DNA of 18,290 nucleotides, taken from Thalassavirus gary (taxonomy: Duplodnaviria; Heunggongvirae; Uroviricota; Caudoviricetes; Demerecviridae). A model generated the notes under the pieces. The model was given only the letters and a program-made list of their open reading frames with translations. It made no database searches and had not been told where the DNA came from. The translations under genes were made by a program, and so were the position numbers. Positions 1,934-18,198 of this stretch are shown in pieces. The stretch is from IMG/VR virus record IMGVR_UViG_2974784677_000001; one strand, 5' to 3'. How positions within the stretch are numbered: position 1 is the stretch's first letter; each line of letters opens with the position of its first letter.

Positions 1934-2920
1934 ATGGAAGCAATTAAATACCCAAGCACTGGTCAATTCCGTAACGCAGCTAAATTCCTACAACACAACA
2001 CTCCGGCAGGTTCTCTTGTCGCTGTGGTTGGTACTGTTAAGATTCATGGTACTAACGGCAGTATGGTTATGCTAGAAGATGGTACTATCCACTTTCAGTC
2101 TAAGAGTCGTGTGCTAGATACCCACAACGATAACTCTGGTTTCTGTAACTACATGCTAGAACAGCCTGTAGAAGAACTATTTGATAAGTTCATTACTCAG
2201 TACAAAAAGTATTACGGCAAGCGCCCAGCATTCCCTATCGAAATCGCAGGTGAATGGGCAGGTAAAGGCATCCAGAAAGGTGTGGCTGTCAGTGAAGTAG
2301 ATAAGTTCTTCACTATCTTCGGCTTCCGTGTGGGTTGCGAAGTAGATAATGGCGGTAAGCTAATTGGTTGGCTAACTAACCACAAGTTCAATGATGTGAG
2401 CCTACACGAAAGTCGTATCTACAACGCTTACGATTTTGGTTGCTACCAAATCACTATCAATACTGCAATGCCTCAACTAGCAACTGAGCAGCTACAAGAA
2501 CTAACCCTAGAAGTAGAGAAAGAGTGTCCAGTAGGTAAATGCTTCGGTGTTAAGGGTGTTGGTGAAGGCATCGTATGGACTCCGGTTGACGATGCACTAG
2601 TAGACAACCCTGGTAGTTGGTTCAAGGTTAAAGGTCAGAAGCATAGCGTCAGCAAAGTTACCCAACTAGCGGCTGTAGACCCTGAAAAACTACGCAGTAT
2701 CCAAGAGTTCGTGGATTACGCGGTTACTGAAAACCGTCTAGAGCAAGGTCTACAGGAAGTAGGTCTGGACATGAAACTAACTGGTAAGTTCATCGGTTGG
2801 GTTAACAAAGATATTTACAAAGAAGAACAGGATGTTCTAGAAGCTAATGGACTGACTATGAAGGAAGTTGGCAACCTACTAAGTCAAAAAGCTCGTGAGT
2901 TTTACTTCTCTAAAATGTAA
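1934..2920 (+). CDS. rnl2: RNA ligase, Rnl2 family
   Basis: Nucleotidyltransferase motifs: I KIHGTN, Ia QSKSR, III GEWAG, IV EGIVW, V FKVK. C-terminal VTENRLEQ...DIYKEE resembles the Rnl2 C domain. Confidence 0.85.
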   Translation: MEAIKYPSTGQFRNAAKFLQHNTPAGSLVAVVGTVKIHGTNGSMVMLEDGTIHFQSKSRVLDTHNDNSGFCNYMLEQPVEELFDKFITQYKKYYGKRPAFPIEIAGEWAGKGIQKGVAVSEVDKFFTIFGFRVGCEVDNGGKLIGWLTNHKFNDVSLHESRIYNAYDFGCYQITINTAMPQLATEQLQELTLEVEKECPVGKCFGVKGVGEGIVWTPVDDALVDNPGSWFKVKGQKHSVSKVTQLAAVDPEKLRSIQEFVDYAVTENRLEQGLQEVGLDMKLTGKFIGWVNKDIYKEEQDVLEANGLTMKEVGNLLSQKAREFYFSKM

Positions 2921-2931
2921 ATAAGATAAAT

Positions 2932-2956
2932 AAAGGGTTGCTTCGGCAGCCCTTTT
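2932..2956 (+). terminator. Intrinsic terminator after RNA ligase, overlapping the -35 of the next promoter
   Basis: AAAGGGTTGC-TTCG-GCAGCCCTTT-T; near copy of 199-222 with one G-U pair. Confidence 0.8.
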
Positions 2957-2986
2957 CGCGTATAATAGTTACATAAAGTTGAGAAA
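2938..2986 (+). promoter_or_regulatory. Early sigma70 promoter/leader cassette, type A copy 3
   Basis: TTGCTT(2938-2943)-17 bp-TATAAT(2961-2966); 2959-2986 is identical to 225-252. Confidence 0.9.
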
Positions 2987-2999
2987 GAGAGAAAAGCTT

Positions 3000-3281
3000 A
3001 TGTCAAACATCCAACAGTTTTTTCGTGTACAAATGATGCTAACTAATGACGCTACTCAAGACTATGATACGTTCTACAGCAACTTTGAAAAGGATTCTCA
3101 ATACTCTGCTGCTAAACGTGAGTTCTTTATCGAGTATATGGGCAACGAATGGTGGGTTGATACTTTCTCTAATCATCTATGCTGTGTAACTGAGTTCAAC
3201 TCTTTCGGAGCAGCACAGGAAGCAGAGCAAGAGGGCTATGAACTTCTATCATCATACGGTTACTGGAAAGAGGAAGAATAA
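3000..3281 (+). CDS. Hypothetical protein
   Basis: ORF track starts at 2979 inside the leader; first ATG after the purine-rich RBS is at 3000 (MSNIQQ...). Confidence 0.75.
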   Translation: MSNIQQFFRVQMMLTNDATQDYDTFYSNFEKDSQYSAAKREFFIEYMGNEWWVDTFSNHLCCVTEFNSFGAAQEAEQEGYELLSSYGYWKEEE

Positions 3282-3625
3282 TGAAAAGCTTAGTAGATGA
3301 ACTGCAACTCTTAGTAGAAACGGAAGGTCTAGGTGTCATTAACCGCAAACGCTTTCTACGTATGTGTAAGCGTCATGGTGTTAGTTACCATACTACTACA
3401 GAAATGCTTATTTGGTCAGGTATTCTTCTCCCTAAGACTGACAAGCAATGGCATCCTTGTCTAATTAACTTAAAGCCACGAGAGTGGCATACATACCACG
3501 GCTGGAAGCACAAAGGCTGGCAGGTTATGCGTGGCGAGATGTCAAGTCACATTGTTGGCAAGAATGGGTTTAAACGACCTATGTTTAGTAACTTACAAGT
3601 AAAGTGGATTCCTTATGAAGATTAA
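3281..3625 (+). CDS. Hypothetical protein (basic)
   Basis: TAATG coupling to the upstream gene; GAGG RBS. Confidence 0.8.
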   Translation: MKSLVDELQLLVETEGLGVINRKRFLRMCKRHGVSYHTTTEMLIWSGILLPKTDKQWHPCLINLKPREWHTYHGWKHKGWQVMRGEMSSHIVGKNGFKRPMFSNLQVKWIPYED

Positions 3626-4431: not shown

Positions 4432-4998
4432 ATGAAATTTGATATGTACTGTGATTGGTCGCCTGCTGCTATTGGTGTTGTTGTGGTTGAGCAGGGTCGT
4501 GGTGTTTACTACAACCGCTTCGAGACTGAATGGCATAACCACAAAAACTCTTGCCAAGGTGAGCTAGAAGCAGTAAATATCTGTTTCAATATTGTAGACG
4601 AGCTAGGTCTTGAAAACGTTACTATTCACACTGACCATGAACCGCTAGTGTTAGCAATTGAACGCAATGCTGTTCCTAAGTGTCGTGGTACTAAAAGCAA
4701 AACTAGTCGTGCCAATAAGATTGAAGTATACCGCAACACAATCCAACGCTTCCTAGATCGTAAAGACGTTAAAGCTGTACATTGTAAATCTCACGCCAAT
4801 AATGTCTTTAACTGTGCTGCTGATGTTCTAGCTCGTAAACAGTCAGAGGATGCAATCATGGGTGACTGGGAGCAGCGTCTTAGGGCAAACAACAAGTTTC
4901 ACACAGCAGCAAAACGTGCAACTGTCACAAACCCAACACTTTGGGACGTGGCACAAGCTTGGTTCATTAATATGGTATATGGAGTGGTAGTATGCTAA
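4432..4998 (+). CDS. rnh: RNase H type 1-like protein
   Basis: Catalytic pattern: YCD (D), GELEAV (E), IHTD (D), KSH..NVFNCAADVLA (H/N/D). Confidence 0.75.
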   Translation: MKFDMYCDWSPAAIGVVVVEQGRGVYYNRFETEWHNHKNSCQGELEAVNICFNIVDELGLENVTIHTDHEPLVLAIERNAVPKCRGTKSKTSRANKIEVYRNTIQRFLDRKDVKAVHCKSHANNVFNCAADVLARKQSEDAIMGDWEQRLRANNKFHTAAKRATVTNPTLWDVAQAWFINMVYGVVVC

Positions 4999-7032: not shown

Positions 7033-7227
7033 ATGTATAAACCACTTAAAGCATCACCTGAATTTATCCGTGATAATCAATACAACGACAAGTACATTGT
7101 GGTTAAGGAGGAGTCCATAGCTAAGTTTAACTTACACTTCCTAACCTGTGTTAAAACATATGGGGCTGAGTATATTATGCAATACCCGTCAGGCTTACGT
7201 TGTTTTATTATAGAGAAGATTCAATAA
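7033..7227 (+). CDS. Hypothetical protein
   Basis: ORF track frame 7018-7227; ATG 7033 follows GAGGA and the upstream stop. Confidence 0.7.
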   Translation: MYKPLKASPEFIRDNQYNDKYIVVKEESIAKFNLHFLTCVKTYGAEYIMQYPSGLRCFIIEKIQ

Positions 7228-7287
7228 ATCTAGAATTGCTTAACTAATCAAAATCTCATATAATATATACATAAATTGAAACGGAGA
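7226..7287 (+). promoter_or_regulatory. Early sigma70 promoter/leader/RBS cassette, type B copy 5
   Basis: TTGCTT(7236-7241)-17 bp-TATAAT(7259-7264); identical to 6581-6642. Confidence 0.9.
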
Positions 7288-7294
7288 ACAGAAG

Positions 7295-7615
7295 ATGGTT
7301 AAAGTTATTATTACTTTTGGTTGCTACCTAGAAACATGTCACGAAATGGTTCTTGTTACTAACCGTGACACTCTTACCGAAGCAGAACATGACAAGATTA
7401 ACAGTGAAGTTGTGTACCCGATGGCCATTGAGACTACAGATGGTTGGGTAGGCTCTAACGGCTTCTGTGAAGACCTAGACGATGCTGAAGACATTGAAGA
7501 GGCAGTAGAAGATGAAGCGTTCTACTACTCAGAAGTCTACGACCCTGAGAAACATGATGGGTTCTTGATGGGTTGTCAAGATGAATGGCAAATTATTGAA
7601 GAAATTGAATTATAA
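7295..7615 (+). CDS. Highly acidic hypothetical protein
   Basis: About 29 D/E versus 4 K/R in 106 aa (manual count); directly behind cassette B5. Confidence 0.85.
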   Translation: MVKVIITFGCYLETCHEMVLVTNRDTLTEAEHDKINSEVVYPMAIETTDGWVGSNGFCEDLDDAEDIEEAVEDEAFYYSEVYDPEKHDGFLMGCQDEWQIIEEIEL

Positions 7616-7629
7616 TAGGAGATAGTCAC

Positions 7630-8004
7630 ATGTCACACATTGAAGCAAAGAAAGCATCATTCGTAACTACAGCAGTCCTAGCAATGGCAGCTAAAGAACG
7701 TGACCTATACGAAGCAATCACTCGTGAATGGCGTCACTCTCAAGTTATTTATATTGGCGTTAACGAACGCAGCCTGTTGGTTAGTAATGCAAAGCCTCGC
7801 AAGTCTAAAGGTACTGACCTAGGAGCTATGCATGGTAAGACTTACTTTACCATTAAGAACTACGGCATTGACGGTATGTATATTCCAGCTAGTAAGTTTA
7901 TTAGCCCGTATGCACTACGCAGCTTTAAGTTCACAGAAGGTCAGCTATATGAAGTAAGCCGCAGTGAGTTTCTATCGAGACTAGCTATGGAGTTACACAT
8001 CTAA
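7630..8004 (+). CDS. Hypothetical protein
   Basis: 124-aa ORF; RBS context GGAGATAGTC matches the cassette leaders. Confidence 0.8.
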   Translation: MSHIEAKKASFVTTAVLAMAAKERDLYEAITREWRHSQVIYIGVNERSLLVSNAKPRKSKGTDLGAMHGKTYFTIKNYGIDGMYIPASKFISPYALRSFKFTEGQLYEVSRSEFLSRLAMELHI

Positions 8005-8896: not shown

Positions 8897-9466
8897 ATGA
8901 AAATTACGAGACAAACAATTGCAAGTCCTAAAGAAGTATTACGATTCCTAGCATTATATGCAGGCAAAACACTACCTAACGACCCTTGGACACTAGCAGC
9001 CATTTCAGTATACCTGAAGCCTTTAAAGAATATGCTAGTATTGGATTACGATGGTATAGAAGCTACATTTGGTATTGATAAAGCTTGGATTTGTAAGAAC
9101 TATGAGAAGCGTTCATGGCTACCCCCAGTTGTCCATGAAAAGAAAGCAGACCCTGCTATCACTCATTTCCTAGAGAATAATTTGACAAAAGAGCATGTCA
9201 TTGAGAAGAAACAAGGCTTTAAATATAACTATACTAAGATCGCACTAGATTGCATACAGCAACTAAGCAAAGTTGTTACTCGAACATATATTCGTGATGC
9301 CAACAAGCCTAGAGCATCTGATTTGGCATTTGGGAATGGTTCTCAGCGTGTCCAATATATTACAGAGCTGTTTCTAGAGCTAGACTATGCTGCGCAGCAG
9401 GAACTACTTGCCAAACTTCAGCAAGCTTCACAAGCACCCGCTGAAATTCCTGACACATTAGAATAG
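8897..9466 (+). CDS. Conserved T5-like hypothetical protein bordering the terminal repeat (T5.018-like)
   Basis: MKI..QTIAS..EV.RFL..YA.K.LP.DP and YTKIAL..I.QLSK.VT.TYIR...PR.SDL.FG.G.QRVQ.ITELFLELDY.AQQEL match my recollection of the T5-like ORF next to the terminal repeat; AGGAG RBS. Confidence 0.75.
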   Translation: MKITRQTIASPKEVLRFLALYAGKTLPNDPWTLAAISVYLKPLKNMLVLDYDGIEATFGIDKAWICKNYEKRSWLPPVVHEKKADPAITHFLENNLTKEHVIEKKQGFKYNYTKIALDCIQQLSKVVTRTYIRDANKPRASDLAFGNGSQRVQYITELFLELDYAAQQELLAKLQQASQAPAEIPDTLE

Positions 9467-9490
9467 CCGAGTAAAAAATACAAGCTTTAC

Positions 9491-9519
9491 TTGAAATTTT
9501 CATAGATTCATGATACAAT
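9491..9519 (+). promoter_or_regulatory. sigma70-type promoter with no convincing downstream ORF
   Basis: TTGAAA(9491-9496)-17 bp-TACAAT(9514-9519), with an A-rich upstream tract. Confidence 0.6.
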
Positions 9520-9581
9520 AACTGCATAGCTAGAGAGTTATGAACAACTCACGCTAGCAGAGATAAATCTTATGAATTTTA

Positions 9582-9693
9582 GAGCGTTACAGGGATAGAA
9601 AGAAAATCTAGCAAAGACATTTTCGAGTAACAGCGAAACGAAGTGAAGTCGTAACGAGGTCTTGAATAAGATTCTTTCACAACCCTGTAGCTC
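9582..9693 (+). ncRNA. Candidate structured non-coding RNA
   Basis: Three nested stems: 9582-9594/9683-9693, 9598-9609/9669-9678, 9612-9618/9659-9664; lies downstream of the 9491 promoter. Confidence 0.4.
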
Positions 9694-9858
9694 ACCACTC
9701 ATGATTACGAGGGGGTTCTATTAACTACAGAAAATTACCCCATATGGAAGAACAGATAACGCCCCGCTATCACTCTAGCCTCCTATAGAAACAACTCTAG
9801 TCATTCAAGTTATTACCCTAGCATAGTCTAGGGTTTTATTATATCTATATCCTATCAA

Positions 9859-10366
9859 ATTTGCACCACCTCACGTTAGTGTATCCTCGGCATATCTAGG
9901 ATTAACATTTGCAAAGCAAATGATTCTCCATGTCTTGCCGGAATTGGGGGAAGGACAAAGGGTACAATAGGTTCTATCATTAATAGTAGAAGTCGGATTT
10001 GCACCTGTTCAAGGAGCGACCCCCGAAAAGTCAATTGGTTTTTCCAAATTTCTACCCAAATCCCCCAAAATCTTTAAATCCTGTCTGTTTTGCACCTAGA
10101 CCACCATATAATCCCATATATCTCTTAAAAACTCCATATATCGCATTCGCACCTAGATTTCGCACCCACCCCAATCCTGGCCATGCCTTGCTGCACGCAG
10201 CTGGACTCGGCCAAATTTTTGGAGCAATCGGATTCGCACCTGCAGGCGCCTGACCAAATAGCAGAAAATATAAAACTCAAAATGCATCGAATCGGCACCT
10301 AATTTATAATAGAATTTGCACCTACTGCCATGTAATCATCGAATTTGCACTTGTCGGATTTGCACC
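9859..10366 (+). repeat. Dispersed same-orientation repeats, consensus (G)(G/A)ATT(T/C)GCACC(T), 10 copies
   Basis: GCAC(C/T) cores start at 9863, 10001, 10092, 10149, 10162, 10236, 10295, 10318, 10347, 10362; TCGGATT(T/C)GCACC at 9993, 10228, 10354. Confidence 0.85.
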
Positions 10367-10392
10367 CAGGCGCAGGAGGGACGTCCGGAGCT

Positions 10393-10480
10393 CTATACGT
10401 CTATCCTTCCAGACTTCTATCCATCCAGACTTCTAGCCATCTATCCTTCTATCCATCTAGCCGTCTAGACTTCTATCCTT
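10393..10480 (+). repeat. Tandem array of 11 degenerate 8-mers (CYAKMCDT)
   Basis: ctatacgt ctatcctt ccagactt ctatccat ccagactt ctagccat ctatcctt ctatccat ctagccgt ctagactt ctatcctt. Confidence 0.9.
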
Positions 10481-10556
10481 CCGTATGCCCTACTGTAAAG
10501 GTTTACAGTACACCATTCTGTATAAAATTTTACCTTATGCCGTCCCGTATAAAATA

Positions 10557-10572
10557 TGGCACGATTCTTGCT
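10557..10572 (+). promoter_or_regulatory. sigma54 (RpoN) -24/-12 consensus site
   Basis: TGGCACG-ATTC-TTGCT, exact match to TGGCACG-N4-TTGCW. Confidence 0.65.
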
Positions 10573-10582
10573 TATTAAAAAG

Positions 10583-10653
10583 TTATCCACAACTGTATAT
10601 TTATACATCGCTCTAAAACGCTCTATACAGAGTTATCCACAACCTTATCCACC
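10583..10653 (+). promoter_or_regulatory. DnaA boxes
   Basis: TTATCCACA at 10583-10591 and 10633-10641; TTATCCACC (8/9) at 10645-10653. Confidence 0.75.
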
Positions 10654-10662
10654 GCAAAACCA

Positions 10663-10678
10663 CTGTATATTTATACAG
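10663..10678. promoter_or_regulatory. LexA (SOS) box-like palindrome
   Basis: CTGTATATTTATACAG, 15/16 to CTGTATATATATACAG; a variant ending in T lies at 10593-10608. Confidence 0.6.
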
Positions 10679-10870
10679 GGCTTATGTCGCAGCATATTAT
10701 TTCGAATACCGTTTCTAGCGCCTCCTAGCCTCACCACGACGTTTTAAGCCTTTTAGGGTACTATGGCCTACCCTATCCTACACGCCCATAGCGCCATGTA
10801 ACACTAGCACGACTTTTACGTGCTGCCGGAGCGGCGCGGTTTTACAGAATGGTGTACGGTAAACGGGTAA

Positions 10871-10901
10871 ACAAAACGGCGTCACTTTTCGGTGACGCTG
10901 T
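10871..10901 (-). terminator. Intrinsic terminator of the minus-strand pre-early operon
   Basis: ACGGCGTCAC-TTTTCG-GTGACGCTGT stem (10876-10901), followed on the minus strand by TTTTGTTT; 7 nt past the last stop. Confidence 0.75.
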
Positions 10902-10907
10902 AACAGT

Positions 10908-11144
10908 TTAATTTATTTGGTATTTGGCACGCTCTAGGATCGAAATTGCGTCATCAATTAGATTGCTTGCCGCTTCAGTATCGTGCTCAAACGGGGCGGT
11001 ATTACTGACAGTTAAGTAAATAAACTGTATGGCCGCCGCACTATCAGGATCTTGCTCTAGAGTAGGATCACTCGCTCTAGCTTCATGTAGCAGCCATTTA
11101 ACATGCTCGAAAAAATCCGAATCGACCAAATATTGTTTATCCAT
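10908..11144 (-). CDS. Pre-early hypothetical protein
   Basis: 78-aa ORF, last gene of the minus-strand operon; GGTGG RBS. Confidence 0.75.
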   Translation of the reverse strand: MDKQYLVDSDFFEHVKWLLHEARASDPTLEQDPDSAAAIQFIYLTVSNTAPFEHDTEAASNLIDDAISILERAKYQIN

Positions 11145-11145
11145 T

Positions 11146-11202
11146 TTACACCACCCAAATCATTGCAATTAAAAGTACGATGTCCAGTAAATCAATTTTC
11201 AT
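11146..11202 (-). CDS. Putative 18-aa hydrophobic micropeptide
   Basis: MKIDLLDIVLLIAMIWVV*; ATGA overlap with the upstream stop; stop 1 nt before the next ATG. Confidence 0.5.
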   Translation of the reverse strand: MKIDLLDIVLLIAMIWVV

Positions 11203-11423
11203 CGTGGTTCAAAGTCCCGTACTATTTCTAGAAATTCACGGATTGTAATTCCATCACACCGAATTTCCTCATCGGAGTGTTGAGTATGACGTACTGTAAA
11301 CTTGTCATACTCTACTTGCTCGATTTCATCTACTAGCACACCTTTATAGTATAAACCACGTTGTTTGTGTGCCTCATACACTTGTTGCAAAAATGATACT
11401 AACATTTCACTAGGTCTTAACAT
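11199..11423 (-). CDS. Pre-early hypothetical protein
   Basis: 74-aa ORF with GGAGG RBS. Confidence 0.75.
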   Translation of the reverse strand: MLRPSEMLVSFLQQVYEAHKQRGLYYKGVLVDEIEQVEYDKFTVRHTQHSDEEIRCDGITIREFLEIVRDFEPR

Positions 11424-11425
11424 GG

Positions 11426-11602
11426 TTAAACCTCCACCGGATAAAGTTTGTTTACTACAGCGTACGCCGTACCGTTTTCATCTTGCCACACTTGACCAAA
11501 TTCATTAGTTTCTACATGCTTCAAAATCATAGGCACAATATGACCATTATGCATAATATTGCACATCCAAGTTTGTCCTAGTGTCATAACGTGAACGCTC
11601 AT
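11426..11602 (-). CDS. Pre-early hypothetical protein (58 aa; not in ORF track)
   Basis: MSVHVMTLGQTWMCNIMHNGHIVPMILKHVETNEFGQVWQDENGTAYAVVNKLYPVEV*; GGTGA RBS; ATGA overlap. Confidence 0.7.
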   Translation of the reverse strand: MSVHVMTLGQTWMCNIMHNGHIVPMILKHVETNEFGQVWQDENGTAYAVVNKLYPVEV

Positions 11603-11706
11603 TTTAAAATCACCAAAATTTTATTATAGTCCATACGTACCGTAAAAAACGGTTTGCCGTTTCTAGCAGCCCATAGCAAAGCAGTTGCATAGTTATCAAA
11701 TTCCAT
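11599..11706 (-). CDS. Pre-early small protein (35 aa; not in ORF track)
   Basis: MEFDNYATALLWAARNGKPFFTVRMDYNKILVILK*; starts 1 nt after the upstream stop. Confidence 0.55.
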   Translation of the reverse strand: MEFDNYATALLWAARNGKPFFTVRMDYNKILVILK

Positions 11707-11707
11707 A

Positions 11708-11938
11708 CTAATAATGTGTCGGTAGGTTAAGTCTTAACAATCCATTGCGAACACCAAAACATAGGTGCTTAGATTCTACAGGTTCAAGCTCGCAAGGGTA
11801 GCACATAAAAGACTCACCGCAAAAAACATACGGGGATACTACAGAAATATAACTCCCGTCAATGGCTACAATAACACCACATTTGCCGTTAGTATCTTTG
11901 CAGCGACCTTTTACTTTTACAATTTGGTTAACTTTCAT
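11708..11938 (-). CDS. Pre-early hypothetical protein (KOW/SH3-like N-terminus possible)
   Basis: MKVNQIVKVKGRCKDTNGKCGVIVAIDG resembles a KOW-type beta motif; GGAG RBS. Confidence 0.7.
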   Translation of the reverse strand: MKVNQIVKVKGRCKDTNGKCGVIVAIDGSYISVVSPYVFCGESFMCYPCELEPVESKHLCFGVRNGLLRLNLPTHY

Positions 11939-12009
11939 TTAAGGGTACTCCGTAGGGTAAAGGGTACGTATGCCGTACCCTAAAGCCGTTAACACAATGA
12001 TTACACTAA

Positions 12010-12312
12010 TCATGCCAATTCTCGAATCATATCACGTAATAAATCGGCGTCCGCATCATTGCAGTATATAAACCCGTAACCGTTACCACCGTCATGTGGG
12101 GCAACTTCTTTTAATACTTGAGATACAGTATGGTGTTTTGCTAGTATGCCTGTTTTTATACAGTGTAGCGTTCGCTTCCCTAGCAAGTCACCAGATTTTT
12201 GTAGTGTGATTTCTCCATCACTCCATAACTGGTACACCATACCGTTTCGTGCTGCTAGGTCGTCGTTGTTAGCAGATACAAATTTTTCTGTTAATTCTGT
12301 AATAGTAATCAT
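12010..12312 (-). CDS. Pre-early hypothetical protein
   Basis: 100-aa ORF with GAGG RBS. Confidence 0.8.
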   Translation of the reverse strand: MITITELTEKFVSANNDDLAARNGMVYQLWSDGEITLQKSGDLLGKRTLHCIKTGILAKHHTVSQVLKEVAPHDGGNGYGFIYCNDADADLLRDMIRELA

Positions 12313-12327
12313 CGCTAATACCTCGTA

Positions 12328-12648
12328 TTATATCCCTAGCCAGCCGTTTTCGAATCGTGCGCCCTCAAAAATAGCCCACCATGTTAACAAGTCAGCCCTA
12401 GCGTATTGGTACAGCATACCGCCATTAGTCGCGCCATTAGCAAAAGCTATAGCATACGCTAAAACTTTAGCTTTTAACACGTCCTCGACATCATTAAAAA
12501 GGCTGATATTTCGAGTAATTTCGAAATGGTATTCTTTGTTGCTCAAAAAGCATTGAGCCATTTCTAGACGTTTACTCATTGGAGTATCTGCGTTCAGTTG
12601 GTACGCTGTACTGATTTTTGGTTGTTCTAAAAATTGTTGGTATGACAT
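12328..12648 (-). CDS. Pre-early hypothetical protein
   Basis: 106-aa ORF with GAGG RBS, first gene behind the 12692-12720 promoter. Confidence 0.8.
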   Translation of the reverse strand: MSYQQFLEQPKISTAYQLNADTPMSKRLEMAQCFLSNKEYHFEITRNISLFNDVEDVLKAKVLAYAIAFANGATNGGMLYQYARADLLTWWAIFEGARFENGWLGI

Positions 12649-12691
12649 TTTGTTGCCCTCGCTTAAAGCGGTAATTATTGTCTAGGTCTTA

Positions 12692-12720
12692 ATAATACCA
12701 AAACCTAGACATGGTGTAAA
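12692..12720 (-). promoter_or_regulatory. Pre-early sigma70 promoter
   Basis: Minus strand TTTACA-17 bp-TATTAT. Confidence 0.7.
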
Positions 12721-12738
12721 GTGATTTAGGTCACACTT
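12717..12738. promoter_or_regulatory. CRP-like site overlapping the -35
   Basis: TAAAGTGATTTAGGTCACACTT, 17/22 to AAATGTGATCTAGATCACATTT. Confidence 0.45.
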
Positions 12739-13047
12739 TTAAACGGGGTTATAATCAATTTGATCGATACCAATTTCACGCCATACCATAGACTTATCAT
12801 CATAGCCCCAACCGTCTAGAAGCTCAAGAATTGCGCTACGTTCACGGCGGTCATATAAACCCAAGATATGCATCTCATCGTTATAGATAGTTACACCATA
12901 GGCAGGATGAACAACCATAATGATAGATTCATCATTATCAAGATACCATAGAGTTTCACTAGGATCTTCAACTATATTATTTAGCGGTAGGGCGTCCAGT
13001 ATAGTATCTAGACTGAGTAACAAAGTTTTTTCTTTTAGGTTAAACAT
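12739..13047 (-). CDS. Pre-early hypothetical protein (acidic)
   Basis: ORF track frame 12739-13068; ATG 13047 (MFNLK...) follows GGAGG. Confidence 0.75.
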   Translation of the reverse strand: MFNLKEKTLLLSLDTILDALPLNNIVEDPSETLWYLDNDESIIMVVHPAYGVTIYNDEMHILGLYDRRERSAILELLDGWGYDDKSMVWREIGIDQIDYNPV

Positions 13048-13336
13048 TTTTAACAACCTCCGCAACAACTACTTTCACGGGTACTACTTGAGTGCTACTA
13101 TCAATATAGTGGTCGTGGCGTACGTCACCATATTCCGGTAACACCATATTAGTTGTTTTGGGTACTAGTGGCACGAAAAAGATGTCGTTGTCATCTTCAC
13201 TATATACACACACCGCAACTAGAACATTTTTAATATCTAGTTCATCGCCATACCTAACAAAAGCATCCCCAAATTTTAACGTATCCGCTTGGATGCACTC
13301 ATGCTCACTTTTATGATTCTCAACAGTTACAAACAT
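13040..13336 (-). CDS. Pre-early hypothetical protein
   Basis: 98-aa ORF with GGAGA RBS. Confidence 0.8.
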   Translation of the reverse strand: MFVTVENHKSEHECIQADTLKFGDAFVRYGDELDIKNVLVAVCVYSEDDNDIFFVPLVPKTTNMVLPEYGDVRHDHYIDSSTQVVPVKVVVAEVVKNV

Positions 13337-13411
13337 TTAACATCTCCAGTAAGGGTAAAAACCAACCAATAGGGCTAAACAAAACGCTACACTGCAAACT
13401 AGTTCAAGCAT
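13337..13411 (-). CDS. Putative 24-aa hydrophobic micropeptide
   Basis: MLELVCSVAFCLALLVGFYPYWRC*; AGGT RBS; stop abuts the next ATG. Confidence 0.45.
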   Translation of the reverse strand: MLELVCSVAFCLALLVGFYPYWRC

Positions 13412-13521
13412 GTTATACCTACCTTATTAAGTAGTTTATCAAGTGTCGCAGCACTAGCAACAAATTCGCCAGTTTCAATACTGACACACCACCAAATAAC
13501 ATCAAAAAACATACGGTACAT
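13399..13521 (-). CDS. Pre-early small protein (40 aa; not in ORF track)
   Basis: MYRMFFDVIWWCVSIETGEFVASAATLDKLLNKVGITCLN*; GGAGG RBS; first ORF behind the 13551-13579 promoter. Confidence 0.65.
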   Translation of the reverse strand: MYRMFFDVIWWCVSIETGEFVASAATLDKLLNKVGITCLN

Positions 13522-13550
13522 TGTTTCGCCCTCCTATTGGGTAGGACTTA

Positions 13551-13579
13551 ATCATACTAAATCTAGGCCAAAAGTCTAA
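13551..13579 (-). promoter_or_regulatory. Pre-early sigma70 promoter
   Basis: Minus strand TTAGAC-TTTTGGCCTAGATTTAG-TATGAT; homologous to the 14223 and 12692 promoters. Confidence 0.6.
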
Positions 13580-13684
13580 TAACATTTAGCTATATCCACC
13601 AGCAAAACGATGCCCAGGCGTTATAAGCGCTGTAAGCCGTTATAAGAGGTTCTAGCAAAAAGCCTTGTTTTAGTATGCCTTACT

Positions 13685-13851
13685 TGTGTATAACCACTCA
13701 CAACGGATTCTAGAGCCTAGGAACGCCATTCTATATCGGATAAGCTGTGATTTAGTGTAGATAAGATCCGTTTTCCTGTTAGTATGTTGTGGATAACCAG
13801 TAGATATACAGTATTATTAGAACTTGCTAATGTGCATAAGTCTGTGTATAA
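13685..13851 (-). promoter_or_regulatory. Cluster of DnaA boxes (all on the minus strand)
   Basis: TTWTNCACA matches at 13685-13693 (TTATACACA), 13788-13796 (TTATCCACA), 13831-13839 (TTATGCACA), 13843-13851 (TTATACACA); 8/9 match at 13756-13764. Confidence 0.7.
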
Positions 13852-14057
13852 AAAGTTGGCACGAAAATTTCCTAATATATAAATCAAGAAATATTTTGCT
13901 ATATAATATAACTAGAAATTCTTTGACAAGCTCAAAAATCTATGAATCGAGCTATGCACAAAAGTGACTAAATATGCAGTTTTTTAACTAAAAGTGCATA
14001 AACGATTTAAATGAACTCGACTACAGGGTAGGGCTAAAATTGCTTAGAATCGCATAC

Positions 14058-14090
14058 AGAGCGTTTTAGAGCTATGTATAAATATACAGT
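14058..14090 (-). repeat. 33-bp inverted copy of 10592-10624 (32/33 identity), containing a LexA-like box
   Basis: Reverse complement ACTGTATATTTATACATAGCTCTAAAACGCTCT versus ACTGTATATTTATACATCGCTCTAAAACGCTCT. Confidence 0.9.
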
Positions 14091-14101
14091 GGTTTTCAAG
14101 T

Positions 14102-14117
14102 TGGCATGGTTATTGCT
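14102..14117 (+). promoter_or_regulatory. sigma54 (RpoN) -24/-12 consensus site
   Basis: TGGCATG-GTTA-TTGCT with correct GG-N10-GC spacing; a -24-only variant TGGCACG-AAAA-TTTCC lies at 13857-13872. Confidence 0.6.
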
Positions 14118-14222
14118 ACGTGCGCGTTTCTATTTATATTTATAGCCCTAGGTTATATTAGTAATTACTATATTAGAAACGCCTCGATTAATAAAATTTA
14201 TCGTCACGATAAAAACGTTTTG

Positions 14223-14251
14223 TTAGACTATAATCCTAGATTCGCTATTAT
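14223..14251 (+). promoter_or_regulatory. Pre-early promoter P1 of the A2-A1-dmp operon
   Basis: TTAGAC-TATAATCCTAGATTCGC-TATTAT; same family as 13551-13579. Confidence 0.6.
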
Positions 14252-14301
14252 ATACCCATACCGCAACAACACGGCGGGACAGAAAAGCTGAAAAGCTTCT
14301 C

Positions 14302-14351
14302 GAAAAAAGTTGAAAAAAGTTGTTGACACACTAAGCGGCTTTTGAGATACT
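14302..14351 (+). promoter_or_regulatory. Strong pre-early promoter P2 with UP element
   Basis: (GAAAAAAGTT)x2-G-TTGACA(14323-14328)-17 bp-GATACT(14346-14351). Confidence 0.85.
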
Positions 14352-14357
14352 AACAAC

Positions 14358-14382
14358 GTCCCCAAGGGGGCACGCTCTTTAA
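14358..14382 (+). promoter_or_regulatory. boxB-like hairpin plus boxA antitermination-like element
   Basis: GTCCC-CAAG-GGGGC hairpin, then CGCTCTTTAA (14373-14382); rrn boxA is TGCTCTTTAACA and lambda boxA is CGCTCTTA. Confidence 0.5.
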
Positions 14383-14557
14383 GGCAGTAAGACGGAATGC
14401 AGTGATGCATCGAATGCCTAGACAATTTGGAAAATGCGATTTGACCCATTGCTTACTTGATTGGATTGTTTGAGTATTAACCGTTAGCCGATTCATAGCG
14501 AGTCGGTTAACTGAGAAATACTCTCATTTAAAACTAACCTATTAAGAGGAAAATATC

Positions 14558-14995
14558 ATGGCTAAGAAATGGACAGAAGAAATGGCGGAAAAAGCAGCAA
14601 CTCTTTACACTGCTAAACTTGAAGCTGAAGGTAAAGAAGCGGCAGCACATACCGATTTTCTTGATACCATTGCGGTAGAAGTCGAGGCTGTATCAGGTAA
14701 AGCGGTTCGCTCAAAACTAACTGTTATGGGTGTTTACCAAAAACCGGACGCCGTTGCAAGTGTAGCTAAAACGAACACTGTACGTAAAGAACACTATGTA
14801 CGTGCTCTAGCTCATACGCTTGGTTTAGATGCTGATGATTTAGACAGCTTGAAAAACGCTAAAATGTCAGCCCTAGCCGATTTAGCTCAAGCGATTGGTA
14901 TCACTGACATTCAAGCAGCAAGCGCAAAAAATTACGAACCGGATTTAGAAAAGGTTTGTGAAGCTTTCGAAAATGCCCGTGGTCTAGACCTATAA
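14558..14995 (+). CDS. A2: T5-like A2 protein (DNA-binding, second-step transfer)
   Basis: W.EE..., AVRSKLT...YQK, RKEHYVR, DDLDSLKNAK match T5 A2 motifs; position next to A1. Confidence 0.9.
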   Translation: MAKKWTEEMAEKAATLYTAKLEAEGKEAAAHTDFLDTIAVEVEAVSGKAVRSKLTVMGVYQKPDAVASVAKTNTVRKEHYVRALAHTLGLDADDLDSLKNAKMSALADLAQAIGITDIQAASAKNYEPDLEKVCEAFENARGLDL

Positions 14996-15094
14996 CCAAC
15001 GCCTAAACAATTAGGGGGAATTATCCCCCTAATTTACAGTGTAAATTTAAACAAGTTTACACTGTAAATTAACCCATAAATGGAGAGTAAAACA

Positions 15095-15448
15095 ATGGCT
15101 AAGATTAGTATTAAATCACTGTTAAACAACGGCAGCGCAAAACAAGAACTACAAAACAAAGTTGAAAAACTAACAGGTGTTAGTTTTAATTGGCGTCCAA
15201 ATAGCCGTATTTCTGGGCGTACACTTCAAGCCGTCATTGATTTAGCGGAGTATAGAACACCGCTATTCAATGAAAGTGAAATTAATTCACTACGCTATGA
15301 AAACAAAGCAGCAAAAACAGTAGTTATGGGGATGTTGTGTGAAGCTCTAGAAATCAGCGACCTAGAACAACGTAAAGCAATTATGACGATTGCGAGTTGT
15401 TCAAGTGCAGATGATTTTGTTACTAAAGTTCTATTCATGTTTGTATAA
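15095..15448 (+). CDS. Pre-early hypothetical protein between A2 and A1
   Basis: ORF track starts at 15080; ATG 15095 follows GGAGA. Confidence 0.8.
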   Translation: MAKISIKSLLNNGSAKQELQNKVEKLTGVSFNWRPNSRISGRTLQAVIDLAEYRTPLFNESEINSLRYENKAAKTVVMGMLCEALEISDLEQRKAIMTIASCSSADDFVTKVLFMFV

Positions 15449-15522: not shown

Positions 15523-17187
15523 ATGAAACAAGTTAACGAAGTAATCACAGCAAACGCAACGGCAATCATTAAAGCTGCAAAAGGTCTTAATTTTTGGGGC
15601 AAACGCCTAGACTCAAAACGCCGTGAAATTGCTATTGCAATTCGTGATTCTCTTAAAATCACTATCCATTCTAGCGAGCTTATTGATTGGCTAGACGAAA
15701 ACAAGCCAGTCAAACCAGTAAAAGCAAAAAGTCACTCGCAGCAAGCAAAAGCTGACATTGAACCTACTTTTGCAGGTTCTATCAATGGTCGAGATTTTGA
15801 CAACCTAGACGACGGTTTGTATATCTTGACGGCAGGACAGAACAACACAAAACCGCATCCAGTCTTAAATACTCTATTAGCAATTGCTAATGAGCGTGAT
15901 GCAGAGTTCGGAGTTATGCCGATTAAATATACAACCGTGCTACAGGGACGTGAACGCAAAGAGCCTAAATATCACGCAGATATTAAAAAGCATATTCTAG
16001 AGCCTGTAGATACTTGGTTAGGTGGTGAAGGTAACGTGCTACTAGCTAACAGTGCTCAGATTCTCCCAACTGCAAAACAGCCAATTAACGCAGCCGAGCG
16101 ACTAAATACAGGTGAATCATTAACTATTGTTGCTAGTCCTCGTCGCCAGACTAAAACCCTACCACGTCAAAAGAATGGGGCTTTCCGTTGGGTTTATACA
16201 ACAGGTGTTTGTACTCAAATGCATTACACTGACAGCCGAGCAGGGGCAGAAGCAGAAGCAGAACACTGTTTTGGTGGTGTGTTAATTGAAGTTCGAGACG
16301 GGCTAATCAATCACCGCCGTTTAGTAGCTGACGAAAACGGTGTTATTATTGATAACGGTTCGGTGTACTTCCCTGACGGCACTATCAAAGCTTACAATGA
16401 TGTTTTTGAGCAAAAGCCTGTTATCGTGCTAGGTGATTTGCATTGTGAGAAAATGTGCGAAGACTCATTTAACAGAGCATTACGCCAGATTCACAACGAA
16501 AACCCGTCATTGGTAGTTGTTCATGATGCGCTTGATTTTATGAGCCGTAACCACCACAACCGCGAGGACTGGACATTCTTATACCAAATGCAAGACCGTG
16601 CAGTAATCGACGATTTAACCGATGTAATCAATCACCTAAACCAGATTGCAGAATACGCGCCCGTTTTCATTGTTGAATCAAACCATGATTTAGCTCTAGA
16701 TTCTTGGGTACGTGATAATAAATTCGATGTACGCAAAGACCCTAAAAACGCCCGTACATATCACGCTCTAATGCTTGCTTACATTGAAGCGATGGACAAC
16801 GGCGAATTAAACGACCTTGCAAAAATGGATTTAGCATTCAGAGCACTAGCTGACAAGCTACCAGAGTTAAGCGATGATATCGAGTTCGGTAAAATCGACT
16901 CACAACGTCTAGTATTTGGTTATGATGTTTCTATGCATGGTCATGTTGGTACAGGTGGAGCGCGTGGCTCAGCAGTATCATTCAAAAAGATGCGCATTAA
17001 AACTGTAACAGGTCACACACATTCACCTTTTGAAGATAACAATAATATTGTTGTTGGTGTAACTGGCTCTATGGAGATGGGTTATAACAAAGGTGGTACA
17101 ACTTGGGACAGAGCAAACGCAGTTATTTACCCTAACTCAACTCACCAACTACTACCAACCTACCTAATCGGTGAAGCTCAATACTAA
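15523..17187 (+). CDS. A1: T5-like A1 protein (host DNA degradation and second-step transfer; metallophosphoesterase-fold nuclease)
   Basis: 554 aa; NFWGKRL, DWLDENKPVKP, QNNT.PH, GDLH, HDALDFMSRNHHNR, VESNHDLAL, MHGH, GHTHS match T5 A1. Confidence 0.93.
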   Translation: MKQVNEVITANATAIIKAAKGLNFWGKRLDSKRREIAIAIRDSLKITIHSSELIDWLDENKPVKPVKAKSHSQQAKADIEPTFAGSINGRDFDNLDDGLYILTAGQNNTKPHPVLNTLLAIANERDAEFGVMPIKYTTVLQGRERKEPKYHADIKKHILEPVDTWLGGEGNVLLANSAQILPTAKQPINAAERLNTGESLTIVASPRRQTKTLPRQKNGAFRWVYTTGVCTQMHYTDSRAGAEAEAEHCFGGVLIEVRDGLINHRRLVADENGVIIDNGSVYFPDGTIKAYNDVFEQKPVIVLGDLHCEKMCEDSFNRALRQIHNENPSLVVVHDALDFMSRNHHNREDWTFLYQMQDRAVIDDLTDVINHLNQIAEYAPVFIVESNHDLALDSWVRDNKFDVRKDPKNARTYHALMLAYIEAMDNGELNDLAKMDLAFRALADKLPELSDDIEFGKIDSQRLVFGYDVSMHGHVGTGGARGSAVSFKKMRIKTVTGHTHSPFEDNNNIVVGVTGSMEMGYNKGGTTWDRANAVIYPNSTHQLLPTYLIGEAQY

Positions 17188-17474: not shown

Positions 17475-17559
17475 CATTCACTAGCACATAAACCACGTGG
17501 CGGGCGCAAATGTGATGCCCGTCACACTTTTACTTAACCGCATAAGCGAGTATTTACCA

Positions 17560-18198
17560 ATGAAAAAAGCATACATATTTGACCTAGACGGCACAACAAT
17601 TGATTCTTTTCACCGTGTTGAGCCATGCCTAGATTCACAGGGTAACTTGAATCTAGATAAATATATCAAAGAGGCTTGCACGCCTGAAAAGGTAGCCAAT
17701 GACAAACTGTTGCCACTTGCCGGATACATGCAACAACTAATCAAACAGGGTGAACTTGTTATCATCCTAACAGCTCGTTACATGCTTAATCATGATTATG
17801 TTTACCTACGCCGTAATCAATTGAGAACGCCTATCATTTGCAGCCGTGACCAATTGAGCCGTGTATTTGGTGAAGGTAATGCAGCCCGTATCAGTGCAAT
17901 GTCAGATGCACCATACAAACAACAATGGTTTGAACATCTATTTGCTAGTATGCCACAAGTTACAGAATGGTGTTTCTTTGACGACCACGACGGTATATTA
18001 GAAATGGCTAATTCATTAAAAGGTGTAACAGCTACCGACGCTAAATTGATGAATCAACTGTTAGAAATGCAATGGGCTGACATTTACCGCCAAGGCGAAC
18101 AAGACACCGCCGAGTTGATACAAGACCTAATTGTTGAATGTTCACATCAAGACGTGATTATCAAACCGGAGTGGATTGATGAGCTTTTAGCTGAATAA
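17560..18198 (+). CDS. dmp: Deoxyribonucleoside-5'-monophosphatase (HAD family)
   Basis: FDLDGT.IDSFHRV.PC.DS.GNL, LTARYM, FFDDH match T5 Dmp. The track's GTG 17497 lies in a hairpin, so ATG 17560 is preferred. Confidence 0.9.
   Translation: MKKAYIFDLDGTTIDSFHRVEPCLDSQGNLNLDKYIKEACTPEKVANDKLLPLAGYMQQLIKQGELVIILTARYMLNHDYVYLRRNQLRTPIICSRDQLSRVFGEGNAARISAMSDAPYKQQWFEHLFASMPQVTEWCFFDDHDGILEMANSLKGVTATDAKLMNQLLEMQWADIYRQGEQDTAELIQDLIVECSHQDVIIKPEWIDELLAE

Follow-up and report, generated by a model that had tools for sequence, protein, structure and literature searches.

An 18,290-nt stretch of DNA from Thalassavirus gary (IMG/VR record IMGVR_UViG_2974784677_000001; the whole of it is called the window below) contains two short non-coding segments, pad 1 and pad 2, in which DnaA boxes, a LexA-like palindrome and sigma54-type -24/-12 elements stand close together on either side of a block of small open reading frames (ORFs; Table 1). 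The nearest relatives found by Megablast were the Vibrio phages Pontus, Luma, AG74 and Brizo (Demerecviridae, Ermolyevavirinae, Thalassavirus; 91–96% identity), with no identical record among the matches, and by gene order and similarity the window holds the terminal repeat of a T5-type Vibrio phage resembling Thalassavirus, in the orientation opposite to the T5 map. The termini were placed with the help of VF16, whose ends were determined with PhageTerm, and phi3, whose terminal repeat is annotated: in both phages ~100–130 bp separate dmp from the physical end of the genome, and a terminal repeat of 7.4–7.8 kb, which includes the pad homologues, ends 420–460 bp past the homologue of pad 1. 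Mapped onto the window, the repeat end of VF16 falls at ~10017, roughly 540 bp beyond pad 1. The window thus starts in unique genes and crosses the inner repeat boundary on its way to the physical end. By analogy with T5 we infer that the dmp-A1-A2 end enters first in the Vibrio phages as well. The initial annotation had placed the pads in the first-entering DNA, which agrees with their position in first-step DNA by T5 homology; in this orientation, however, pad 1 would occupy the inner, far end of the presumed first-step DNA and not the vicinity of the entering tip.

The two pads are almost certainly the Vibrio version of the T5 inverted-repeat modules flanking the small pre-early gene block, to judge from both arrangement and sequence. 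Pad 1 would be the counterpart of T5 Repeat Region 3 (inverted repeats IRD'-spacer-IRC', the injection-stop region in the non-coding inner end of the repeat) and pad 2 that of Repeat Region 2 (IRC-spacer-IRD, in a divergent promoter region). In the T5 record AY587007, dmp, A1 and A2 on one strand are followed by a promoter region in which inverted repeats C and D are located, then by opposite-strand small ORFs, terminators and 1.2 kb of non-coding DNA that holds palindrome D, inverted repeats D' and C' and further repeats, and finally by nine copies of direct repeat D (DRD) running over the end of the terminal repeat. The window shares this order: dmp-A1-A2, a promoter/repeat region, opposite-strand small ORFs, a terminator, ~1 kb of non-coding repeats and the repeat end. 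In T5, CTGTATAAATATACAG is found in palindrome D as well as at the inner end of repeat D; these are the 16 bases of the window palindrome on the other strand, so that the palindrome core is identical at 16 of 16 positions. The 13–14-nt DRD unit is identical as well. In T5 the core is likewise adjoined by two DnaA boxes 3 bp apart, and pad 1, aligned with IRD and IRD', follows them in the order of box, 3 bp, box and palindrome, with its pair at 10633–10653 opposite the T5 box pairs. Blastn matches of pad 1 were located in the left terminal repeats of T5-like phages of E. coli, Salmonella, Klebsiella and Pectobacterium (79–84% identity over 47–58 bp for DT57C, chee24 and the Salmonella and Klebsiella phages).

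Table 1. Features of the window around the two pads and towards the physical end of the genome (positions in the window).
Feature	Position	Strand	Remarks
Direct-repeat field, 13–15 nt units (GTGCAAATCCGAC on the minus strand)	9992–10366	-	Unit identical to T5 direct repeat D (DRD)
8-bp-period array, CTAG-rich units	10392–10490	.	Between DRD field and pad 1
Pad 1, whole	10557–10682		Non-coding
Sigma54-type -24/-12 element, perfect TGGCACG-N4-TTGC	10557–10571	+	Points into pad 1; no gene downstream on + strand
Consensus DnaA box TTATCCACA	10583–10591	+	Counterpart of T5 IRC' box
Pad-1 arm of long-range inverted repeat	10589–10627	.	Holds palindrome copy 1 and GCTCTAAAACGCTCT tail
Palindrome copy 1, CTGT-N8-ACAT	10593–10608	.	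One arm mutated
DnaA-box pair 3 bp apart, TTATCCACA at 10633 and TTATCCACC at 10645 (one mismatch)	10633–10653	+	50 bp after first box
Palindrome copy 2, perfect CTGT-N8-ACAG	10663–10678	.	16-bp core is that of T5 palindrome D
Intrinsic terminator ending the minus-strand small-gene block	10879–10898	-	
Nine small pre-early ORFs	10908–13521	-	Between the pads; counterpart of T5 ORF011-017
Pad 2, whole	13685–14118		Non-coding, divergent promoter region
Pad-2 DnaA cluster, TTATNCACA at 13685, 13788, 13831 and 13843, TTATCTACA (one mismatch) at 13756	13685–13851	-	
AT-rich stretch of the divergent intergenic region	13852–14054	.	29.6% G+C; sigma70-like elements
Sigma54-like site, TGGCACG....TTTC	13857–13871	+	Perfect -24, TTTC for TTGC (one mismatch); conserved in close relatives
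Pad-2 arm of inverted repeat	14055–14118	.	Palindrome copy 3 and sigma54-like site
Palindrome copy 3, ATGT-N8-ACAG	14074–14089	.	One arm mutated
Sigma54-like site, TGGCAT-N5-TTGC	14102–14116	+	One mismatch; points at A2 operon, A2 440 bp away
A2 (in T5 a DNA-binding protein required in second-step transfer)	14558–14995	+	Annotation of relatives; 42% identity to T5 A2
Small ORF between A2 and A1	15080–15448		Homologous place annotated in relatives
A1	15523–17187	+	Annotation of relatives; 31% identity to T5 A1
dmp (deoxynucleoside-5'-monophosphatase)	17497–18198	+	~90 bp before window end; annotation of relatives

The pads had been presented initially as an undescribed system, which they are not: the IRC-spacer-IRD and IRD'-spacer-IRC' modules of T5 are annotated in AY587007 and were compared across 25 T5-like phages by Davison (2020, bioRxiv 10.1101/866236), where eight DnaA boxes, set in pairs 3 bp apart with a fixed spacer, were described, the modules were better conserved than the adjacent genes, and some phages had the Region-3 copy only. 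According to a citation in that paper, the DnaA boxes were already reported in 1987. Two of the functions suggested for the pads, a brake on injection and looping of one pad to the other, are also close to a published proposal, in which membrane-bound DnaA halts the entering DNA and possibly joins it in a knot with the second repeat copy (10.1101/866236). The words Vibrio, LexA, SOS and sigma factor are absent from the text of Davison 2020 (10.1101/866236), and full-text searches found no literature that links T5-like repeats to LexA or sigma54. The twin DnaA-box inverted repeats are, therefore, already described, and the novelty is limited to the sigma54 component and to the Vibrio lineage.

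The likeness to T5 includes the location in a terminal repeat with dmp, A1 and A2, two inverted copies enclosing small pre-early ORFs, paired DnaA boxes beside palindrome D, the DRD unit stretching over the repeat boundary and non-coding DNA more conserved than the neighbouring genes. Even the 'Type 4' T5-like phages with a Region-3 module only have a parallel in AG74. Unlike T5, the window belongs to a phage of a Vibrio host and of another subfamily (Ermolyevavirinae), has an additional half-mutated palindrome after the first box of pad 1, keeps the box cluster and the repeat arm of pad 2 ~200 bp apart with promoter DNA between them, and shows an 8-bp-period array where T5 has DRC/DRE repeats. 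Sigma54-type sites set it apart not only from T5 but also from DT57C, Salmonella Kenya-K36, a Klebsiella T5-like phage and Pectobacterium phage DU_PP_V. Copies of the DRD unit at ≤2 mismatches numbered five in the window and nine each in T5, My1 and phi3. The predicted boundary of the terminal repeat (~10017) falls inside the DRD field, as in T5, which points to a role of the field in formation or recognition of the repeat end.

All of the motifs initially listed for the pads were present, and their clustering, already noticed then, is far above chance. The consensus box TTATCCACA was found three times in the window against 0.20 expected and TTATNCACA six times against 1.26 expected, all six inside the two pads, while none of 200 shuffles reached this number; the sigma54 pattern at ≤1 mismatch occurred four times (1.06 expected). 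The loose pattern CTGT-N8-ACAG at ≤1 mismatch was not enriched in the window (six seen, 8.2 expected): its distinctive SOS-like feature is a single 16-mer present three times, once perfect and twice with an ACAT/ATGT arm. The pads also share sequence, although less exactly than the 33-bp repeat attributed to them initially: the inverted repeat (10589–10627 against 14055–14093) is real, with 36 of 39 bases matching, but the 33-bp portion contains one internal mismatch, and the longest exact inverted word is 22 nt. It brackets the small ORFs at 10908–13521, and the GCTCTAAAACGCTCT tail of its pad-1 arm occurs in Pectobacterium phage My1 too. In pad 2, the boxes at 13831 and 13843 form another pair set 3 bp apart; three of the pad-2 boxes are perfect TTATCCACA in Thalassa, Pylo, River4 and Hades.

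Conservation was followed in an alignment of 15 Vibrio phages (the window and 14 others) and by comparing the window with six distant relatives. Pad 1 was kept in all 15 phages; it was 92–98% identical in Ceto, pVp-1, VF16 and VPT02, while the surrounding 4 kb aligned over only 21–28% at 82–84% identity. In the six distant relatives the DnaA boxes were 87–96% and the perfect palindrome 97% identical to those of the window, the sigma54 -24 and -12 elements 94 and 96%, and the five-base spacer between them 67%; with motifs at 87–97% overall and flanks at 36–64%, the claim that the pads are homologous and maintained was well founded. The first box and the box pair start 50 bp apart in the window and 11 relatives and 60 bp apart in River4 and Hades, both spacings being whole helical turns. 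Natural variants were found as well. In River4 (586–700) and Hades (529–640) unrelated sequence stands in place of both pad-1 palindromes, but a TGGCAT-type sigma54 site and all three DnaA boxes are retained. The intergenic region of AG74 at 2816–3396 is 581 bp long, compared to roughly 1 kb in the window (13555–14290), and is devoid of every element of pad 2: DnaA boxes, palindrome and sigma54-like sites. The single-pad phage AG74 together with River4 and Hades, which have no pad-1 palindromes, are thus ready natural controls.

LexA of the Gamma- and Betaproteobacteria recognises CTGT-N8-ACAG, a motif validated for comparative work in the Vibrionaceae (PMC3323433). Judged by the usual features of LexA operators, copy 2 (10663–10678) has both arms and an AT-rich spacer and is the only perfect operator sequence among the three LexA-like copies; copies 1 and 3 each have one mutated arm. 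As a test with natural operators, the 18-mer from pad 1 of the close relatives, which differs from the window copy in one flanking base, was searched in a one-genome-per-species set of bacteria. More than 120 bacterial contigs were matched, and 77 of the 80 among the matches listed belonged to the Gamma- and Betaproteobacteria. Inspection of the nearest genes at ten of the loci placed the 18-mer 3 bp upstream of a dinB-type polymerase gene, 16 bp upstream of yebG, 21 bp upstream of dinI, 97 bp upstream of a umuC-type polymerase gene and 27 bp upstream of a radical-SAM gene; these neighbours, at five of the ten loci, we take to be SOS-regulated. The radical-SAM gene is possibly of the splB type, which is predicted to be LexA-regulated (PMC3323433). 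Since the 18-mer stands before SOS genes, the palindrome is, at the sequence level, an authentic SOS operator (LexA box). Within five whole phage genomes, the window 16-mer at ≤1 mismatch was confined to the terminal repeats. The palindrome of pad 1 differs from LexA operators in lying off any promoter (only one weak 9/12 match overlapped 10663–10678, and pad 1 is located past the operon terminator), in the mutated arm of two of its three copies and in its occurrence in a lytic phage with no known use for SOS control. Binding of LexA to the perfect palindrome is, on this evidence, a tentative expectation, a little short of even. Another CTGT-N8-ACAG match, at 10493–10508, was rejected as a conserved LexA-type site, its arms reading CTGC in most relatives.

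For the sigma54-type sites, 20 complete Demerecviridae records (2.34 Mb) were searched for exact matches to TGGCAC-N5-TTGC. The 14 Vibrio-phage records contained 25 distinct sites (0–5 each), all in a zone of roughly 3 kb bounded by the A2 gene and the outer edge of pad 1, and none was present in the remaining ~110 kb of any of the 20 genomes; a control pattern read backwards gave four matches in all. T5, DT57C, Kenya-K36, the Klebsiella T5-like phage and DU_PP_V had no perfect site, and Pectobacterium phage My1 had one, located within its Region-2 repeats and in a context like that of the window (AAGTTGGCACG...TTGCTTAT). The 10557-type site is the sole perfect one in whole genomes such as those of Pontus, Thalassa, Ceto and AG74. 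It was retained in 12 of the 14 aligned relatives, including phi3, which keeps both elements with an altered spacer, and reads TGGCAT in River4 and Hades. Positions outside the search pattern were checked in 17 distinct sites against the extended consensus YTGGCACG-N4-TTGCW: G followed TGGCAC in 16 of the 17 (background frequency of G 0.21), A or T followed TTGC in 15 of the 17, and, of the 11 distinct sites away from the outer edge of pad 1, 10 had T or C directly before the motif. The pad sites thereby resemble RpoN -24/-12 promoters in combining GG-N10-GC with the extended consensus, and we consider it very probable from this pattern that they are a selected feature.

The arrangement of these sites varied among the phages. 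KIT04 has perfect facing sites flanking pad 1 on both sides, and in Ceto, VF16, pVp-1 and PVo5 the outer pad-1 site is paired with a one-mismatch inner site. VCPH has five perfect sites within 3 kb, none at the position of 10557 but one on the opposite side of pad 1, and a perfect co-oriented site (TGGCACGATTCTTGC) beside the palindrome, placed like the site at 14102 in the window; the latter, claimed initially as a sigma54 site, is present with one mismatch, and the 13857 site on its own is weak. Convergent pairs 3–25 bp apart were found in VCPH, SJ1 and VspSw_1. Near-palindromic convergent pairs occupy 4660–4713 and 4858–4891 in VCPH and 2753–2785 in SJ1, and one convergent pair of VCPH directly abuts a copy of the palindrome. 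In IMG/VR, a composite of the sigma54 site, 5–20 nt and TTATCCACA occurred with 11-nt spacing only in known Vibrio phages; the other matches had scattered spacings in a number close to the chance estimate. No report of sigma54 sites in virulent phages was found in the literature searched. In contrast to RpoN promoters, no activator site was identified (only a LuxO-type enhancer pattern was tried, which occurred at chance level and nowhere near the pads), and the most conserved site has no downstream gene. Neither a conserved ORF nor an Rfam family was found downstream of the pad-1 site; the 323 nt downstream of it folded with z = -2.6 only, which makes no sufficient case for a non-coding RNA there. 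Convergent pairs would make poor promoters, the near-palindromic ones in particular being hard to reconcile with promoter function, and the best-conserved site has no transcript target, but other sites point at the A2 operon or the small genes and may act as promoters. The sigma54 holoenzyme forms a stable closed complex without an activator, which would suit a docking role, and non-promoter sigma54 binding sites have been reported in bacterial genomes. The holoenzyme has about an even chance of binding the pad sites.

The consensus DnaA boxes, the SOS-operator palindrome and the zone-confined, extended-consensus sigma54 sites together bear out the earlier impression that the pads look like sites for host proteins. 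The explanation that accounts best for the whole, to which we assign a probability of about 0.55, is that the pads are T5-type cis modules loaded by host proteins, with a role in DNA transfer or in insulation. As cis-acting, protein-loading, non-coding DNA they would be bound on entry by pre-existing host proteins with no need for new synthesis. DnaA would occupy the phased boxes (pairs 3 bp apart, sub-modules 50 or 60 bp apart), a dimeric protein, LexA being the simplest candidate, would sit on the perfect palindrome, and in the Vibrio phages sigma54-RNA polymerase would be held at the -24/-12 sites as a silent closed complex. The resulting nucleoprotein complex might contribute to the pause and to an A1/A2-dependent restart of genome transfer and/or insulate pre-early transcription. 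On its own, binding of DnaA in vivo is somewhat more probable than not. Control of the injection pause by the complex is unlikely, and it appears distinctly unlikely that sigma54-RNA polymerase in a closed complex, DnaA and LexA gate transfer or the pre-early programme according to the state of the host; under such gating the whole T5 family would share an ancient DnaA/LexA module, to which the Vibrio lineage added the sigma54 sites.

Several points weigh against loading by host proteins with a role in transfer. The ACAT arm is kept in the Vibrio relatives that have this palindrome copy and in most My1 copies, which selection for LexA binding alone would not predict and which suggests another or additional ligand. 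Two holoenzymes would hardly fit on a convergent pair together, and the enterobacterial T5-like phages pause without any sigma54 site. Both the palindromes and the twin arrangement are dispensable: pad 2 is gone from AG74, and the pad-1 palindromes are gone from River4 and Hades. A protein on DNA that is already internal would be no obvious stop for the DNA behind it. Finally, the stop of T5 after transfer of 8% of its genome and the restart have been an open question for some 60 years, and papers from 2023 up to 2026 still call the mechanism of the pause unknown.

Among the alternatives, ordinary control of pre-early transcription would need no transfer role at all: the sigma54 sites would be promoters for A2-A1-dmp and the small genes, with LexA and DnaA as repressors or roadblocks. 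In its favour, the 14102 site points at A2, 440 bp away, the VCPH sites point at A2 and at small ORFs, the pad-2 sites of VF16, pVp-1 and phi3 are directed into the small-gene block, a 273-bp gap inside this block contains a perfect site on the gene strand in VspSw_1 and SJ1, and pad 2 is located between divergent sigma70-like promoters. These promoters, however, are strong and already serve both operons, no LuxO-type enhancer was found and no activator site is evident, and many of the sites form convergent pairs. The best-conserved site (10557) has no gene downstream, the ORF starting there being frame-broken in relatives, and pad 1 lies past the terminator of the small-gene block where operators would have nothing to control, all of which leaves transcription control improbable as the whole explanation. 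Somewhat more improbable is that the likeness to host operators is incidental and that phage proteins, namely the DNA-binding A2 dimer and the predicted nuclease A1, read the palindromes and perhaps the TGGCAC motifs for A1/A2-dependent cleavage or release at the restart, for circularisation or for processing of the repeat, as in the restriction-type model of Davison. A1 and A2 are the sole known trans factors of second-step transfer, A2 binds DNA, the palindrome is conserved in its asymmetric ACAT form and the elements stand in both terminal repeats, hence at both genome ends. Yet phages with A2 and A1 proteins only 42 and 31% identical have the same 16-bp core; the identity of core and boxes despite this divergence favours a conserved host ligand over a phage one, with A2 as a further possible ligand. 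Moreover, the palindrome sequence serves as an SOS operator in bacteria, the sigma54 likeness reaches consensus positions outside the search pattern and, as established for T5, the first-step stop precedes any synthesis of phage proteins.

That pad 2 serves as a DnaA-dependent origin of replication, or titrates DnaA in the manner of datA, is very improbable. Like oriC and datA, the pads have several phased consensus boxes, and the five DnaA-type boxes of pad 2 adjoin a 200-bp stretch of 29.6% G+C. The DNA sponge proposed initially would have to titrate DnaA, LexA and the like, of which a cell holds hundreds to thousands of molecules (about 100 to 2000 copies), with ~8 boxes, 1–3 LexA-type and 1–3 sigma54 sites per genome; this number of sites is too low for the number of protein copies, which makes a sponge implausible. 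The absence of pad 2 from AG74, which is a viable isolate, and the mid-genome position of the T5 origins, with replication genes outside the first-step DNA (Davison 2020, 10.1101/866236), make a role as an origin unlikely.

The injection-stop architecture of paired DnaA boxes, palindrome D and DRD spans subfamilies of the T5 family into the Vibrio phages, and LexA and, in the Vibrio phages, the sigma54 holoenzyme would be concrete candidate ligands of it. If none of these proteins binds, what is left is one more member of a repeat family that is already on record.

Several coding and structural candidates around the pads were rejected. A 63-aa ORF at 10556–10747, starting in the sigma54 motif, has its frame broken by indels in relatives. 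A 61-aa ORF on the plus strand at 14106–14291, with a hydrophobic N-terminus and a start in the 14102 site, is reduced to ~12 codons in Luma and diverged in sequence in the other aligned relatives, and is probably not a gene. An inverted repeat around pad 1 (10501–10525/10840–10864) is not a conserved structure, its right arm being uncomplementary in Pontus and Hades. An Rfam search over 9400–14600 gave nothing relevant, the sole match being a chance-level plant microRNA model.

Six of the nine small ORFs between the pads matched PHROGs families of unknown function, and none had a match in Pfam. This block is mosaic among the relatives, with genes swapped, and both pads are nearly constant. 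The pattern AAATGAGA...TCATT, typical of the T5 DRC/palindrome G-I repeats, had no match in the window; palindromes of this type were located beside pad 1 in VF16 (9314–9333) and VCPH (7210–7230). Arrays comparable to that at 10392–10490 were present in Ceto, VF16, pVp-1 and PVo5, and in VCPH a 14-nt tandem repeat of the ACAACTGTTGCGGT type at 7600–7750 takes the place of the 8-bp array of the window.

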